Assembly: GCA_964601825.1 (NCBI GenBank)
Contig: CAZROS010000001.1
Location: 1 to 25,758, forward strand
DNA: 25,758 nucleotides
Direction of reading: 5' to 3'
DNA from: an uncultured archaeon
Lineage (GTDB): Archaea > Aenigmatarchaeota > Aenigmatarchaeia > Aenigmatarchaeales > JACQIB01
Of this stretch, positions 5,192 through 17,947 are shown in pieces (positions within the stretch are counted from its first letter, which is position 1; each line of letters opens with the position of its first letter). The position numbers and the translations under genes were made by a program. The notes below the pieces were generated by a model. It had not been told where the DNA came from, did not search any database, and worked only from the letters and a program-made list of their open reading frames with translations.

Positions 5192-5857
5192 ATGAGAAAT
5201 ATAATGTTCACAACTACTACTGAAAATCTGCGCACCATAATTGCAGGAATGGAACCAACAGAAGATGATTCTATATTGGCTATTGCAGGTTCGGGCGATC
5301 AGGCATTTGCGCTTTTAGAATATGCTGGAAAGGTAACGGCAGTAGATATAAATAGTGATCAAATGTGGTATGTGAGGAAGAGAATAGATGCTCTAAAAAA
5401 AGGGCATTACAGAGAATTTCTGGAATCCCCAATTAATGATGTGACAGAGTTTCTAGAAAGAAGTTCAAGAAATATATATTTCAGAGGTTTTTTCAGAACA
5501 AATAGAAGACTGGAGCGCATAAGAAAAAGATTGGATAGATTGGAAATTGTGGAAGGTGATATTTTTCAAATTATTAAAAAACAGAAAGGCAATTTTAACA
5601 AAGTATATTTTAGTAATTTGGGAGATTGGGTGGCTAGAGAACAGTTATATGAATCTGATGGATTAGACCATTTGCCGAATGGCTGCCTTGTTTATTGTTC
5701 ATCGGGCCCTCCTGTAGAAAGCGATCATTTAGTTGTAGACGAAAGACTAACATCACAATCAAGAAGGTTCGGCAAGTATTGGAGACCAACAGTTTACAGA
5801 AAAGTCTCACCGCCGATTCAATTTTCTCCTGTCGCACCAGTCAGATATGTTGCATAA
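5192..5857 (+). CDS. Class I SAM-dependent transferase, DUF3419/BtaA-like
   Basis: 'ILAIAGSGDQAFALL...VTAVDINSDQ' resembles the DUF3419/BtaA SAM-binding motif. Arg codons are AGA-rich, unlike neighbouring core genes. Confidence 0.55.
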   Translation: MRNIMFTTTTENLRTIIAGMEPTEDDSILAIAGSGDQAFALLEYAGKVTAVDINSDQMWYVRKRIDALKKGHYREFLESPINDVTEFLERSSRNIYFRGFFRTNRRLERIRKRLDRLEIVEGDIFQIIKKQKGNFNKVYFSNLGDWVAREQLYESDGLDHLPNGCLVYCSSGPPVESDHLVVDERLTSQSRRFGKYWRPTVYRKVSPPIQFSPVAPVRYVA

Positions 5858-5895
5858 CTAAGCGCCTTTTTAATTTGCTCGGTTAATATTTTTTC

Positions 5896-6038
5896 ATGGC
5901 AAAGCTTTCCATATTTCTTGACGAAAGCGGAGACCTTGGAAAGCGCGGCTCAAAATATTTTTAATTGAAAAGAAAATTTCAAAAATAATAAATCTATGGG
6001 AGAACAAAAACAATCAGACGGACCCCACAGGCGCTTGA
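5896..6038 (+). pseudogene. DUF3800 gene remnant with large internal deletion
   Basis: 5896-5964 encodes MAKLSIFLDESGDLGKRGSKYF*, the (I/L)DESGxLG N-terminal signature of DUF3800. A shifted frame continues LIEKKISKIINLWENK..., resembling a C-terminal tail. Confidence 0.7.
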
Positions 6039-6082
6039 AGTGCACCTCAAGGTACACGACACCCATAGGACTTACCCGTCTG
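6015..6082 (-). ncRNA. Putative structured RNA, candidate DUF3800-associated motif
   Basis: Minus strand: closing stem CAGACGGGU/GUCCGUCUG (6074-6082 with 6015-6023), inner hairpin CUUGAGG-UGCA-CUUCAAG (6034-6051), TTTAAATA at 6109-6102 upstream and a U-rich tract downstream. Confidence 0.5.
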
Positions 6083-6156
6083 TTAAGATATGATACTTTG
6101 TTATTTAAAAAGGCATAAAATTAAATCTTTATAATCTTCTCGTATAATTTTCTCCC

Positions 6157-6804
6157 ATGCGCACCTTTATTCTCTACAGCCACGCCCGCACTGATTCAAA
6201 CTGGAATATAGAAGACATGCCTAGCTCTGGTGGAAGAATGGATTTAGTGACAAGATGCGTTTCCGCAAGCCTCTGGCTTTCTTACACAATTCGGCGCGAT
6301 GCGGAGTTTATTGTTATTTTGAACGGCGCCCCTCGGCCGCCGATTGCAATAAAATTTTCCGGAGAAAAATTAAAAAATGTTTCTCCAGATGAGCGTTCTG
6401 TTGGGCTGTGGCTGAAAAAAGTTTTGGCGCAAGAAATTCCAAAAGACTGGCTGGAAGTTTTTCCGGGAATTTTCGCAGCCCAAAAATCTTTTCAGGGAAT
6501 TGTGAAAGAATACTCAAATGAACGCCCACGTTCAATCACGGGAAGAGCTTCAAATAAAGTTTTTGTTCTGCACGAAAAAGGCGAGCCAATTCAAGAGCAG
6601 AAATTTTCTGCGAGCGGCAATTTAGTTTTTGTGCTTGGAGACAATGTTGGCATCCCAGCAAAGGATGAAAAGTTTGCTTTGCGCTCAGCAGAAAAAATTT
6701 CGCTTGGGAAAACTTCATATGTCGCGAGTGCGTGCGTTTCTGTTGTGAACTGGATTTTAGACGGCTCGGCGCAAGGTAAACCTGTACGCCCCGCTAAATT
6801 GTGA
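6157..6804 (+). CDS. trmY: tRNA (pseudouridine54-N1)-methyltransferase, SPOUT
   Basis: GGRMDLVTRCV, LSYTIRRD, SPDERS, VFVLGDNVG, ISLGKTSYVASAC motifs. Confidence 0.93.
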   Translation: MRTFILYSHARTDSNWNIEDMPSSGGRMDLVTRCVSASLWLSYTIRRDAEFIVILNGAPRPPIAIKFSGEKLKNVSPDERSVGLWLKKVLAQEIPKDWLEVFPGIFAAQKSFQGIVKEYSNERPRSITGRASNKVFVLHEKGEPIQEQKFSASGNLVFVLGDNVGIPAKDEKFALRSAEKISLGKTSYVASACVSVVNWILDGSAQGKPVRPAKL

Positions 6805-14985: not shown

Positions 14986-14995
14986 GTGATAAAAA

Positions 14996-15277
14996 ATGGT
15001 CGTAAAATCCCACGGCGCGCGCAAGCGAACAAGAGGAAAATTCCGCGGCCCGAAAAAATTAACTGTAAATGCCTACCTGAAAGAATTTTCCGCAGGCCAG
15101 AAAGTCGGGCTTGTTGTCAATTCCAGCTCGCAGAAAGGAATGCCCTTCCGCAGATTCCACGGGCTCACAGGAACAATTCTGGAAAAGCGCGGGCGCGGTT
15201 TTGTTGTAGAAGTTTTTGACGGCAATAAGAAAAAAATTATCACTGCAAGGCCTGAGCATTTGAAAGCGCTCAACTAA
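14996..15277 (+). CDS. rpl21e: 50S ribosomal protein L21e
   Basis: KSHGARKRTR, KGMPFRRFHGLTG, ARPEHLK. Confidence 0.96.
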   Translation: MVVKSHGARKRTRGKFRGPKKLTVNAYLKEFSAGQKVGLVVNSSSQKGMPFRRFHGLTGTILEKRGRGFVVEVFDGNKKKIITARPEHLKALN

Positions 15278-15310
15278 TGGGTTTAAATCCTTTTCTGTTC
15301 AATAGTTTTT

Positions 15311-15784
15311 ATGAGATATCAAGTAAACGCAGCTGCAAATGGAAGTGTGAGGCAGCCAGCCAGTATGCTTTCAATTGGCACGCAAGTAGCCGCTGATAAT
15401 GGTCTCTCTGTAAAATATGACAGGGAAGTTTTGCTAGGCACAGAATTTATAGAAGCAATTCGCAGAGGACCTAAGACCCATACAATAAAATTTCACCAAG
15501 AGGGCGGCAGAGATGTTATAAGGCTTCCGTTATACAGCAGGCTTCCGCTTTTGGAAAAAGTTGCAGGCAGCGCTCCTGCAAGAAAAGTCGCTGTTGTTGA
15601 TTTTGATTATGTGCGTGTTGAAAGATTTGGAGAGCTCTCAGAAGAAGATGCCATCTCCGATGGCTTTTCGAGTGAGGAAACTTTCAGAATAGAAACTGAA
15701 AATTTGGCAAGGCAGAGAGGATTCAATCTTACTCCACAAAGCCGTGTTTCCGTTTATCATATTGCTGAAGTCTTTTGGATTTAA
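15311..15784 (+). CDS. ASCH (PUA-like) domain protein
   Basis: 'EAIRRGPKTHTIK' and 'GELSEEDAISDGFSS' ASCH signatures. Confidence 0.75.
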   Translation: MRYQVNAAANGSVRQPASMLSIGTQVAADNGLSVKYDREVLLGTEFIEAIRRGPKTHTIKFHQEGGRDVIRLPLYSRLPLLEKVAGSAPARKVAVVDFDYVRVERFGELSEEDAISDGFSSEETFRIETENLARQRGFNLTPQSRVSVYHIAEVFWI

Positions 15785-15830
15785 TGCCGTCTCGCTCTCT
15801 TGAATCCTGAGCACTCAATTATTTTCAACC
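15781..15830 (-). repeat. Displaced copy of the last ~17 codons of the NIF3-family gene
   Basis: 44/50 nt identical to 16991-17040. Reads LKIIECSGFKRARRH* versus LKIIECSGFKRVRRH*. Confidence 0.9.
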
Positions 15831-15849
15831 AAATTTTCGCGCGCGACTG

Positions 15850-16365
15850 CTAAACAAAAACAATATTCTTAGCAATATCAATCATTTCCTTGCAAACATT
15901 TATCATGTCGGTGATTTTCTTTTCATCCTCAATGGAAACTTTTACGCCATAAGTATAATCTTCCCTCATTTCAATAATGCTGTCCATGTCTTCATATTTT
16001 AACAGATTGGTAAACTTTTCATCAATCTCTAATTTGCCCTCTTCTTTCAATTTTTCAATCAGCGCAACAGTGCATGTTTGGTTTCTTGATTCATAGCCAA
16101 ACTTAAGAGCTATCGCCAGGAAACAATGGTAAACACAGTAAAAGCCCGCAACCATTGACCAGTCTGAAAATCCTATTTTGCTAAAACTCCCGATGGCACT
16201 GAAATTGTGCGCAGCCTTTTCAATATGCCTTTTTGCCGCCTCAATATCTGGCTTTATTTTTAGCAATCCCCTGTGTTTGGGCCTTTTTCCCAGCTTTCTA
16301 TTTTCTTCCATTTCTTTATTTGCTTTATTCAGGCACCATTCAATATGCCTAGAAGCGTGAGACAT
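15850..16365 (-). CDS. HEPN domain protein
   Basis: HIEKAAHNF, 'FYCVYHCFLA', 'GYESRNQTC', 'MREDYTY' HEPN pattern. Overlaps the upstream MNT gene. Confidence 0.8.
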   Translation of the reverse strand: MSHASRHIEWCLNKANKEMEENRKLGKRPKHRGLLKIKPDIEAAKRHIEKAAHNFSAIGSFSKIGFSDWSMVAGFYCVYHCFLAIALKFGYESRNQTCTVALIEKLKEEGKLEIDEKFTNLLKYEDMDSIIEMREDYTYGVKVSIEDEKKITDMINVCKEMIDIAKNIVFV

Positions 16366-16948
16366 CCTTTATCATCTCCACATATTTATCCTGCCCGTAG
16401 AGCACAATAGAATTTTTCACAATATCAACCATTGCTTTATCTTTCTTTTTAAGGCTGTTGGAAAAATCGCTTTGCGTCAGCTTTATTGCATGAAGTTTTT
16501 TCGGCAGCACCTTTTCCTTTTCCCTAAGAATAGCATTCACCTCTCTGGTCTCTGACTTTTCCATAATAATCATAATGTCAATATCCCTCGCATGAGAATA
16601 ATTTTTCAATGCAGAGCCGAACATTATTACCACTCTGTCTTTTTCTAATAATTCTTTGAACTCTTCTTTCCATCTATTGAAGTTGTTGGCTTCGTCTGCA
16701 AGCAAAAATGCCGCGAGCTTGCAAACATAGCTATCTTCCAGTTTGAGCTTGTAAACTATAGATTTTCCAATTTTTTCGGATTCCAGAATGCTGCTGGCGC
16801 TCAGCCTTTTTAGAATCTTCTGCGTGCCCACGTGGCTTATGCCCAAACTCTTACTCAGCAAATTTGCATTGTAAAATGCGGCAAAATCTTTGAGTAAATA
16901 AAGCAATGCAGCTCTCTCATTTTTGGTAAGCTTTATCATAATAACCAC
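16349..16948 (-). CDS. wHTH plus minimal nucleotidyltransferase (MNT antitoxin-like)
   Basis: N-terminal HTH (LSKSLGISHVG...) and FGSA...DIDIM (GS/DxD) motif. Confidence 0.85.
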   Translation of the reverse strand: MVIMIKLTKNERAALLYLLKDFAAFYNANLLSKSLGISHVGTQKILKRLSASSILESEKIGKSIVYKLKLEDSYVCKLAAFLLADEANNFNRWKEEFKELLEKDRVVIMFGSALKNYSHARDIDIMIIMEKSETREVNAILREKEKVLPKKLHAIKLTQSDFSNSLKKKDKAMVDIVKNSIVLYGQDKYVEMIKDVSRF

Positions 16949-16990
16949 AAGTTACTATATAGTAACTTTGAGTTATTTATAAAGTTTTCT

Positions 16991-17947
16991 TTAATGCCTT
17001 CTAACTCTCTTGAATCCTGAGCATTCAATAATTTTCAGCCCGAATTTTTTCTCCATTTTGTCCAAGAGCAAATTCATTCCCAAAGAATCTGAAGACATGT
17101 GGCCTGCAATAAAAACATTCAAATTATTTTTCTTCGCTTCCTCAAACTGCTTGTCTCCCATGTGCATTGCGACAATTGTTCCCACGCCCGCGTTCGCAAG
17201 TTTTTCATAAACTTTATCGCTACCTTCTGTCCCACCAGTCATTTCCAAATGGATTTTTCCAGCAAGATTTTCCATGCTGCCGGAAAAAAGTTTCAGCCCA
17301 GCATCTTTTTCAACAGCCCATTTATATTCTGGCTGCTTAAGCAAAAGTTTGTAAATCTCGCGCACGGTTTTTGGCTTTTCTTTTTCAAAAAGTTTTTCCA
17401 GAAAGGTGTGAACATGGTTGTCAGTAATTGTGTGGAAGCATGCAACAGAAATTCCCAAAAGTTTTGCCGCATCCTCTGTGCGTGTGTGATTTATTCCAGA
17501 AACCCCGCGGTTCACATCTGTTAAGCGTTCGTGTGTGTAGGCTTGGGCGTGAGCAATCGGCACGCCTGCTGCTGCTAAAACATCAGCCTGCATGTCCATC
17601 ACTCCGTAAAGCCCGGCAAGAGCGCGGCCTTCTGGGTGGTGCGCAATTAGAGCATCAATTTTTGTTCCCTTTTCTTTCAATCTATCAGCAAGCAAAATTT
17701 CCTGAGCCTCAATATCAATTCCAACCATAATTGTTTTCACTTGCCCGCCCGCGTCAAAAGCAATTCTCGAGTCATCAAATGGATTCCACAATCTCTCCTT
17801 GTCAAAAAGCTCTTTCTCCTCTTTGTCAAGTTTTTCAAATTTTTCTTTTATTTCAGCGAGTTTCTTTTTCAATCCCTTTTCTCCGCGCGGGTCTTCTTTC
17901 ATTCCCTCTGCAACTGCGAATTCATAGAGGTCTTTTAGAGCGGCCAT
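16991..17947 (-). CDS. NIF3/NGG1-interacting-factor family metal-binding protein
   Basis: EDPRG, VGID, AHHPEG, HTITDN, AGVGTIVAMH, AGHMSSDSLGMN metal-binding motifs. Confidence 0.85.
   Translation of the reverse strand: MAALKDLYEFAVAEGMKEDPRGEKGLKKKLAEIKEKFEKLDKEEKELFDKERLWNPFDDSRIAFDAGGQVKTIMVGIDIEAQEILLADRLKEKGTKIDALIAHHPEGRALAGLYGVMDMQADVLAAAGVPIAHAQAYTHERLTDVNRGVSGINHTRTEDAAKLLGISVACFHTITDNHVHTFLEKLFEKEKPKTVREIYKLLLKQPEYKWAVEKDAGLKLFSGSMENLAGKIHLEMTGGTEGSDKVYEKLANAGVGTIVAMHMGDKQFEEAKKNNLNVFIAGHMSSDSLGMNLLLDKMEKKFGLKIIECSGFKRVRRH

Follow-up and report, generated by a model that had tools for sequence, protein, structure and literature searches.

How do small toxin-antitoxin gene pairs travel between genomes? 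Such pairs are called mobile, most of them lack a mobility gene, and their route of movement is rarely shown. The question is raised in concrete form by a 25,758-nucleotide stretch of DNA from an uncultured archaeon of the Aenigmatarchaeota (GenBank assembly GCA_964601825.1, contig CAZROS010000001.1, positions 1 to 25,758; hereafter the window), in which a toxin-antitoxin-like MNT-HEPN cassette sits between two copies of the 3' end of a NIF3-like gene. The original prediction, made from the sequence alone, held that the cassette had entered by recombination inside the end of that protein-coding gene, bringing with it a replacement tail from a related genome. We find that the bracketing of the cassette by a diverged direct repeat of the NIF3 3' end is real, that comparison with relatives identifies the cassette as an insertion, and that recurrence of the same arrangement around homologous cassettes points to integrase-free, homology-driven movement of such selfish gene pairs. 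The observation behind the prediction is confirmed, and its interpretation is partly supported in the window and considerably strengthened at the level of the family.

The repeat copies and the cassette between them are arranged as follows, in window coordinates.

15781..15837, minus strand: orphan (displaced) NIF3 3' end, comprising the last 16 codons and the stop, then about 10 decayed bases
15838..15849, minus strand: 12-nucleotide (nt) GC-rich joint CAGTCGCGCGCG linking the orphan tail to the HEPN stop, from direct reading
15850..16365, minus strand: HEPN-domain gene, 171 amino acids (Pfam PF05168, E=3e-6), overlapping the MNT gene by 17 nt
16349..16939, minus strand: winged helix-turn-helix (wHTH)-MNT gene, 196 amino acids from the ATG at 16939 (Pfam PF18765 and PF01909; PADLOC PDC-M05A, E=3e-14)
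16940..16990, minus strand: promoter/operator of the cassette, with a GAAAAC resembling the B recognition element (BRE), a TATA box TTTATAAATA and a palindrome AGTTACTATATAGTAACT
16991..17047, minus strand: intact-gene copy of the repeat, joined to the NIF3 body, from repeat search and reading
16991..17947, minus strand: intact NIF3-like gene, 318 amino acids (Pfam PF01784, weak; 5572 homologues, many named NIF3 by their source)

Are the two gene ends truly copies of one another? Direct reading of 15781-15830 against 16991-17040 gave 44/50 identical bases, the same count as in the original prediction. A repeat search lengthens the pair to 58 nt at 84% identity (15780-15837 / 16990-17047), or to 51/59 when one gap is allowed, with a longest identical stretch of 19 nt. 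Only two copies of the repeat exist in the 781-kb genome, both of them in the window. Five codons differ within the 16-codon core, and the earlier reading of them holds: four changes are synonymous (CTG/TTG, ATT/ATA, GAA/GAG and AGG/CGG), the fifth, GTT/GCG, replacing Val by Ala. The orphan reads (A)KIWLKIIECSGFKRARRH* and has neither a start codon nor an upstream open reading frame, with a 1-nt deletion near its 5' edge. Its stop codon (15781-15783, minus strand) shares the four bases TTAA at 15781-15784 with the stop of a convergent ASCH-domain gene (15782-15784, plus strand). Chance similarity of the copies is ruled out by shifted-window controls from the same locus, since only 1 of 217 pseudo-cargoes reached an alignment score of at least 60, against 76 for the window.

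Could the arrangement have been made by an assembler, with two strain alleles of the NIF3 end joined in tandem and a strain-specific insertion between them? Synonymous-only differences would be expected of co-assembled strain alleles, and two related loci give some cause for caution: one has a run of N beside its repeat (L072), and the deposited contig of another (L081) has an extra 50-nt tandem copy inside its orphan that Logan contigs do not support. We therefore set L072 aside because of the run of N next to its module. For the window, we used Logan contigs, which are unscaffolded and built run by run, from four groundwater runs, working with assembled contigs only. The HEPN/orphan/ASCH junction is crossed without mismatch in all four runs (X1, 15070-16369; X2, 15658-16428; X3, 15572-16676; X4, 14986-16966) and the MNT/promoter/NIF3 junction in two (X1, 16342-17388; X2, 16668-17557), while depth over the cargo equals that over the flanks and is even, at 5-11x. 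The 19-nt longest identity between the copies is below any assembler word length in use, and the flanking-repeat pattern is present in assemblies from many studies. Because contigs cross both junctions exactly, depth is equal and the shared identity is too short for an assembler to jump across, strain merger is excluded for the window, and an artefactual origin of the arrangement is extremely improbable. The merging of two strains' contigs had been named with the original prediction as its possible undoing; this was not borne out, as independent contigs span both junctions.

If the arrangement is genuine, which of its parts was there first? The nearest public NIF3 proteins are 79-91% identical to that of the window. 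In the relatives at 87%, 85% and 79%, NIF3 is directly convergent on the gene for ribosomal protein L21e, the two stops overlapping as TTAA, and at least eight contigs (L012-L017, L020 and L023) have this NIF3/L21e overlap, no cassette and a single NIF3 tail. Longer contigs of the 87% relative share HTH, AAA_18 kinase-like and dCMP-deaminase genes with the surroundings of L21e in the window. In the 81% relative L21e and NIF3 are separated by a gene for a 215-amino-acid membrane protein, which overlaps NIF3 by TTAA once more; in the 91% relative, AdoHcyase comes after NIF3. Neither MNT-HEPN nor ASCH is found on any of these contigs with NIF3 relatives. An exact-pattern scan for the NIF3 tail in JGI metagenome contigs returned two contigs, both of the known empty-site type.

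Because the empty-site relatives carry the NIF3 tail without MNT-HEPN, this comparison identifies the cassette as an insertion, in agreement with the predicted entry of a cargo of about 1.15 kb; and since the orphan retains the ancestral TTAA overlap, it is the orphan that is the resident gene end, as its overlap with ASCH had led the original prediction to propose. Two kinds of relative that had been expected did not turn up among the contigs found: none has NIF3 directly convergent on ASCH, the empty sites lacking ASCH as well, and none has NIF3 followed by MNT-HEPN. ASCH is absent between L21e and NIF3 in the relatives and is therefore a second, separate insertion. The two neighbouring genes concerned are as follows.

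14996..15277, plus strand: ribosomal protein L21e gene (Pfam PF01157, E=8e-25), whose stop overlaps the NIF3 stop (TTAA) in empty-site relatives
15311..15784, plus strand: ASCH-domain gene (Pfam PF04266, E=1e-4), a separate, earlier insertion

What, then, was inserted? The cargo of about 1.15 kb consists of the promoter/operator, the wHTH-MNT gene and the HEPN gene, and the insert has no other content, mobility genes included. The cassette occurs once in the genome and has a G+C content of 36.8%, against 40.5% for the genome. Its promoter region begins 1 nt past the NIF3 stop and contains an inverted repeat at 16940-16977; at the other end, the 12-nt joint is the non-homologous junction of the insertion. 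The block TTTATATAGTAACTnnnAGTTnCTATATAGTAACT stands ahead of the MNT ATG in every related locus examined and is the sole conserved non-coding sequence. As in known MNT-HEPN systems of the MntA type, an MNT gene with a GSx(n)DxD motif shares an operon with a HEPN gene that follows and overlaps it. The MNT catalytic motif reads GS...DIDIM, with G108, S109, D119 and D121 invariant in 22 sequences. Unlike the known systems, the MNT protein here has an N-terminal wHTH, and it scores 16 bits against the NCBIfam MntA model, whose cut-off is 60. The HEPN family (1115 relatives, the nearest 69% identical) differs too, having R-x4-Y in place of Rx4-6H: R134-E-D-Y-T-Y139 is invariant, with no His after it where the canonical motif has one.

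These features suggest a self-contained, toxin-antitoxin-like unit with its own archaeal promoter and palindromic operator, in which wHTH-MNT would presumably act as autoregulator and neutraliser and HEPN as its partner. The two tyrosines beside the HEPN arginine might be the site modified by MNT. Other invariant HEPN residues are KHRGL near the N-terminus and ESxNQxCT. The promoter/operator block TTTATATAGTAACTnnnAGTTnCTATATAGTAACTnnnnGTTAC lies directly 5' of the MNT start and is strongly conserved across the family (window 16943-16983; L045 3956-4000, for example), and pieces of it draw in contigs from other organisms when reads are placed on the window.

Is the window an isolated case? The two cassette proteins, MNT and HEPN, are members of a very large Woese- and Nanoarchaeota family, in which the nearest relatives of those in the window are only 65-69% identical. 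We fetched 80 loci of this family (numbered with the prefix L, like the NIF3 contigs) and aligned the 300 nt upstream of MNT to the 300 nt downstream of HEPN. Enough flank was available in 51 loci, namely the window and 50 from other genomes; a repeat was called at a score of at least 50, and 217 shifted pseudo-cargoes served as the control. A flanking, locus-specific direct repeat is present in 12 of the 51 loci and in 2 of the 217 controls (Fisher p=5e-8). Searching out to 2.5 kb adds four loci in which extra genes ride along with the module (L081, L090, L047 and L057). The repeats are 29-189 nt long and 84-100% identical, their sequence is different at each site, and at least nine different gene ends are involved. 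Targets include the following.

L040: 3' end of a P-type ATPase (heavy-metal) gene, repeat of 189 nt
L045 and L096: 3' end of NusA, within the conserved NusA-S12 operon
L060: 3' end of an amino-acid kinase gene
L081: 3' end of a gene encoding 812 amino acids
L041 and L059: 5' end of RNase HII

The anatomy throughout is that of the window, one copy completing the target gene and the other standing as an orphan on the far side. The left edge of the cargo is the promoter, and the spacer on the HEPN side is 3-45 nt long in the other loci, with no motif in common. A repeat in L092 was left out as it contains the module promoter, which indicates tandem modules and not a target duplication. For L040, a search for a second empty site by way of the gene downstream of the orphan failed, that gene being multi-copy in its genome.

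How did the second gene end come to be there? One answer is that the end was duplicated in place, by an insertion that made a long duplication of the target, about 58 nt before the NIF3 stop, through break-repair or template-switch copying of the target to either side, after which the two copies diverged where they stood. To model this, we simulated in-situ decay on the real sequences, with the orphan evolving neutrally and the functional copy accepting mostly synonymous changes. Under this model, codon position 3 should hold 41% of the differences, and 29% of the changed codons should be synonymous. Six pooled pairs with a clear frame, left untrimmed, gave 54/98 differences at position 3 (p=0.003) and 39/77 synonymous changed codons (p=5e-5), so that in-situ decay is rejected for the pooled diverged pairs. 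The signal is carried by L090 (12 synonymous changes against 3 non-synonymous), L040 in its 3' two-thirds (12:1) and L103 (10/14 at position 3). Such a synonymous bias is as expected for alleles of two lineages, and suggests that origin for the diverged copies. The position of the boundary is also informative: similarity ends 0-6 nt from the target stop codon in the three pairs checked (window, L040 and L045). A staggered duplication placed at random would not be expected to give such a boundary, whereas it would fit orthologous gene ends with unrelated flanks.

The window copies, moreover, are not each other's nearest relatives. Over the 48-nt tails the intact copy and the orphan match at 42/48, the orphan matches the orthologue on contig L011 at 45/48 and that on L012 at 44/48, and the copies overall match orthologues at 41-45/48; the two tails are thus no nearer to each other than to the L011/L012 orthologues, although 48 nt is too short for lineage assignment. 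Four-taxon site patterns, with two sites for (intact, L012)(orphan, L011) and one for (intact, orphan), are uninformative. The original prediction had seen both copies as evolving under coding selection, with the replacement tail taken from a related genome. The pooled family sustains this (39/77 against the expected 29%), while the window alone makes a thin case, in which the donor origin of the new NIF3 tail is no more than suggestive.

Duplication in place nevertheless has evidence in its favour. The pattern is known for restriction-modification systems (PMC2853133), and some repeats in the present family are nearly identical (L045, 83/83; L081, 105/108; L060, 36/37). Both window copies have a derived TCA codon, where all close orthologues have TCG; this shared state is compatible with an in-situ origin or with later gene conversion. 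In L045 and L096, which represent an orthologous insertion, four genome-specific states are common to the two copies of each genome, and the repeats therefore keep recombining with each other. A variant of the same explanation, in which the functional tail was later swapped by allelic recombination with relatives, may also be considered; in-situ duplication followed by allele replacement is scarcely separable from an insertion anchored in homology. Weighing the rejected decay model, the stop-codon boundary and the relationships of the window tails, we regard duplication in place as plausible but the less likely course.

The explanation that we favour, with modest confidence, is a homology-anchored insertion at the NIF3 3' end, within the last 20 codons of the gene, either of Campbell type or by homology-facilitated illegitimate recombination. 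In this scheme, DNA of a related lineage, bearing the cassette directly behind its own NIF3 end, would have recombined within the conserved NIF3 end of the resident genome. The intermediate may have been a small circle, integrated by a single Campbell-type crossover in the tail, or a linear fragment joined by homology on one side and illegitimately on the other. The NIF3 body would now read into a tail that arrived with the cassette or recombined during the event, and the resident tail, its TTAA overlap with ASCH kept, would have been pushed 1.2 kb downstream as a non-expressed orphan. Host homologous recombination, through RadA, would suffice, and neither an integrase nor a transposase would be needed. 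Homology-anchored insertion accounts for the differing repeat lengths, for a joint beside HEPN that is arbitrary and for the boundary at the stop codon, and likewise for the allelic-type divergence, the many targets and the non-detection of a recombinase.

Direct repeats normally render inserts unstable. Recombination between the flanking repeats would here loop the cassette out, and an addictive module would resist its loss; scars may survive so frequently in the family because an addictive cassette selects against its own loss. More tentatively, we suggest a recombinase-free cycle in DPANN archaea, in which the cassette carries a gene-end homology arm, loops out and re-enters at the same gene end through a RadA single crossover, its loss being penalised. 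If that cycle operates, host homologous recombination and addiction would together be a sufficient transposition mechanism for toxin-antitoxin modules.

Is a recombinase needed after all? No tyrosine or serine recombinase (PF00589, PF00239) was detected in the 781-kb, 80%-complete genome, in which positive controls scored, and none was found in the cargo or in its neighbourhood in the window, in keeping with the absence noted in the original prediction. RadA is present in the genome. A remnant integrase-borne element, or one resembling the cis-mobilisable elements (CIMEs), would interpret the repeats as attL and attR sites made by a tyrosine recombinase at the NIF3 3' end, its gene since lost or acting in trans. 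Integrative elements of archaea and bacteria do target the 3' ends of tRNA and protein genes and bring a replacement end, a 19-nt identical core lies within the window repeat, and tyrosine recombinase genes are present somewhere in nine of ten other genomes with flanking repeats. Set against this, besides the failure to detect PF00589 or PF00239 in the genome of the window, no tyrosine recombinase was detected in the L045 genome, whose 83-nt repeat is perfect. The targets are at least nine and unrelated, the repeats range from 29 to 189 nt with no common att core or end motif, and the cargo of the window is a promoter and two genes only. We consider such an element improbable.

Other carriers were also set aside. 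No viral contig encodes the module, which speaks against a viral or plasmid carrier, and tRNA-type att sites were rejected as no tRNA gene lies in the nine loci scanned, four of them repeat-bearing. A transposon or insertion sequence was dismissed on three grounds: there is no conserved terminal motif, the right spacer varies from 3 to 45 nt, and the duplications, at 29-189 nt, are not of fixed length.

Does the cassette still leave? The original prediction had proposed a search for excision junctions. No excision or empty-site joint and no circle was seen in Logan contigs at about 5x for the window, L045 and L081, in which perfect repeats collapse into a single unitig. In L045 the word depth of the cargo is about 70% of that of the flanks, and the depth of the repeat unitig misfits a mixture of occupied and empty sites; the dip would be better explained by strain variation in the cargo.

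Several of these results weigh against a homology-anchored insertion. The missing excision joints and circles are among them, as is the incompleteness of the genome, from which a recombinase may simply be absent in the assembly. The donor arrangement, NIF3 followed directly by a close relative of the cassette, was not found. The young repeats (L045 at 100%, L081 and L060 at 97%) are explained equally well by in-situ duplication, and the TCA codon common to both window copies is a shared derived state. One pair, L047, shows the opposite of the synonymous bias, with 1 synonymous to 12 non-synonymous changes, and in the window alone the four synonymous codons of five in the core (p ~0.03) become four of seven, not significant, once edge codons are counted. 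Finally, the HEPN protein has no canonical RNase motif, which leaves addiction unproven.

How does the locus compare with systems already described? Insertion with long target duplication was reported for restriction-modification complexes by Nobusato et al. (2000), cited by Furuta, Abe and Kobayashi (2010, PMC2853133). In the latter account the two repeat copies of restriction-modification systems resemble one another almost perfectly and the empty site less closely, the mechanism is left unresolved, and no archaeal case passed the screen. The present loci share with these a small addictive module without mobility genes at or near a gene end, and variable-length repeats of >30 bp that equal single-copy sequence in the empty site of relatives and are significantly enriched relative to average genes. 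The window itself has an empty site in relatives, a repeat of >30 bp and an insert of <20 kb without mobility genes, the features by which long target duplications are recognised. It differs in that the cargo is an MNT-HEPN toxin-antitoxin-like pair and that the hosts are DPANN archaea. Many pairs here are 84-88% identical with a synonymous bias, which suggests two alleles rather than a fresh duplication, and the window copies, at 42/48, are not closer to each other than to L011/L012. For restriction-modification systems the cargo was proposed to make double-strand cuts, and nothing here corresponds to that.

A second resemblance is to displacement in two other systems, for which the mechanism that we favour has been put forward: circular intermediates in the case of rhs C-terminal displacement (Jackson et al. 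2009, PMC2935791), and homology-facilitated illegitimate recombination in that of type VI secretion system (T6SS) effector-immunity modules (Kirchberger et al. 2017, PMC5361080). There, as here, the incoming DNA has homology with the resident gene end, the old end is kept downstream as a repeat fragment, and no dedicated recombinase is invoked. In the rhs and T6SS cases, however, a functional toxin tip or an immunity gene is what gets displaced, and fragments accumulate in arrays, whereas in the window the displaced piece is a 58-nt non-functional tail of a housekeeping-type gene, leaving one orphan, and the cargo is a separate operon. Integrative elements in gene 3' ends and their integrase-less derivatives, the CIMEs, are reviewed in PMC5704250 and PMC7563491; they too have foreign DNA bracketed by direct repeats of a gene 3' end, with the proximal copy keeping the gene intact. 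They differ from the present loci, where no integrase is detected in element or genome, no att core is shared, and the target and the repeat length change from locus to locus.

The locus is best read as an archaeal, toxin-antitoxin-like variant of two described patterns, C-terminal displacement and insertion with long target duplication. We found no paper describing such displacement for toxin-antitoxin cassettes or for DPANN archaea. The window and about 15 homologous loci thus offer a concrete and testable answer, for one very abundant archaeal family, to the question of how such pairs move. The scar is a displaced gene tail, whose divergence would record the distance between donor and recipient. 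Long target duplication, known only for bacterial restriction-modification systems, is extended here to archaea, and also to addictive modules of a second kind, and this extension to MNT-HEPN favours a mechanism that depends on host recombination over one that needs the nuclease of the cargo itself. There is also a consequence for annotation: short orphan gene ends beside small cassettes in metagenome-assembled genomes are real scars, and not assembly errors or pseudogenes.

Some further observations concern individual loci of the family. In L040, the gene downstream of the orphan ATPase tail (5615-6523) encodes 302 amino acids and has no Pfam match; its five matches in the genome, itself included, comprise a full-length copy at 74% identity, a TGA-split copy at 73% and 84%, and a weak partial one at 43%, and it may be an unrecognised mobile gene. 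About 12 tandem copies of a 16-nt unit, TAAACTAACTTTTAAC, lie between the HEPN stop and the RNase HII start in L041 (5124-5358), against only one or two in L059, its orthologous locus. In L081 (3775-3945 and 5742-5862) the repeat boundary differs between strains, and in run X23 an additional 13 bases, TCAGAAAAACTTG, restore the original last three codons of the target gene beside the functional copy. The RadA gene of the genome that carries the window (G000, contig C20:2978-5164) has two separated Rad51-family matches in one open frame of 840 amino acids, and probably carries an intein.

Others concern the neighbourhood of NIF3. ASCH has one homologue among 45 related genomes. Its insertion (15278-15786) has TAATG at both bounds (15275-15279 and 15782-15786) and an 8-nt inverted pair, TTAAATCC / GGATTTAA, at its edges; both the TAATG bounds and the inverted pair could be chance. 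In the same-genus reference genome NIF3 and ASCH are absent and an M1 peptidase gene is convergent on L21e, so the neighbourhood is generally fluid. The four-base TTAA stop overlap recurs (window 15781-15784; L012 3770-3773; L020 993-996; L021 1009-1012; L023 1917-1920), the convergent partner of NIF3 being L21e in three lineages, the 215-amino-acid membrane protein in one and, through the orphan, ASCH in the window; this recurrence reflects either extreme compaction or a preferred junction. The NIF3 gene is itself a mosaic among close lineages. At gene positions 391-480 the window is nearer to L011 (46-51/60) than to L012 (35-38/60), while outside these positions L012 is the closer of the two, a pattern that would be compatible with frequent homologous exchange between these populations.

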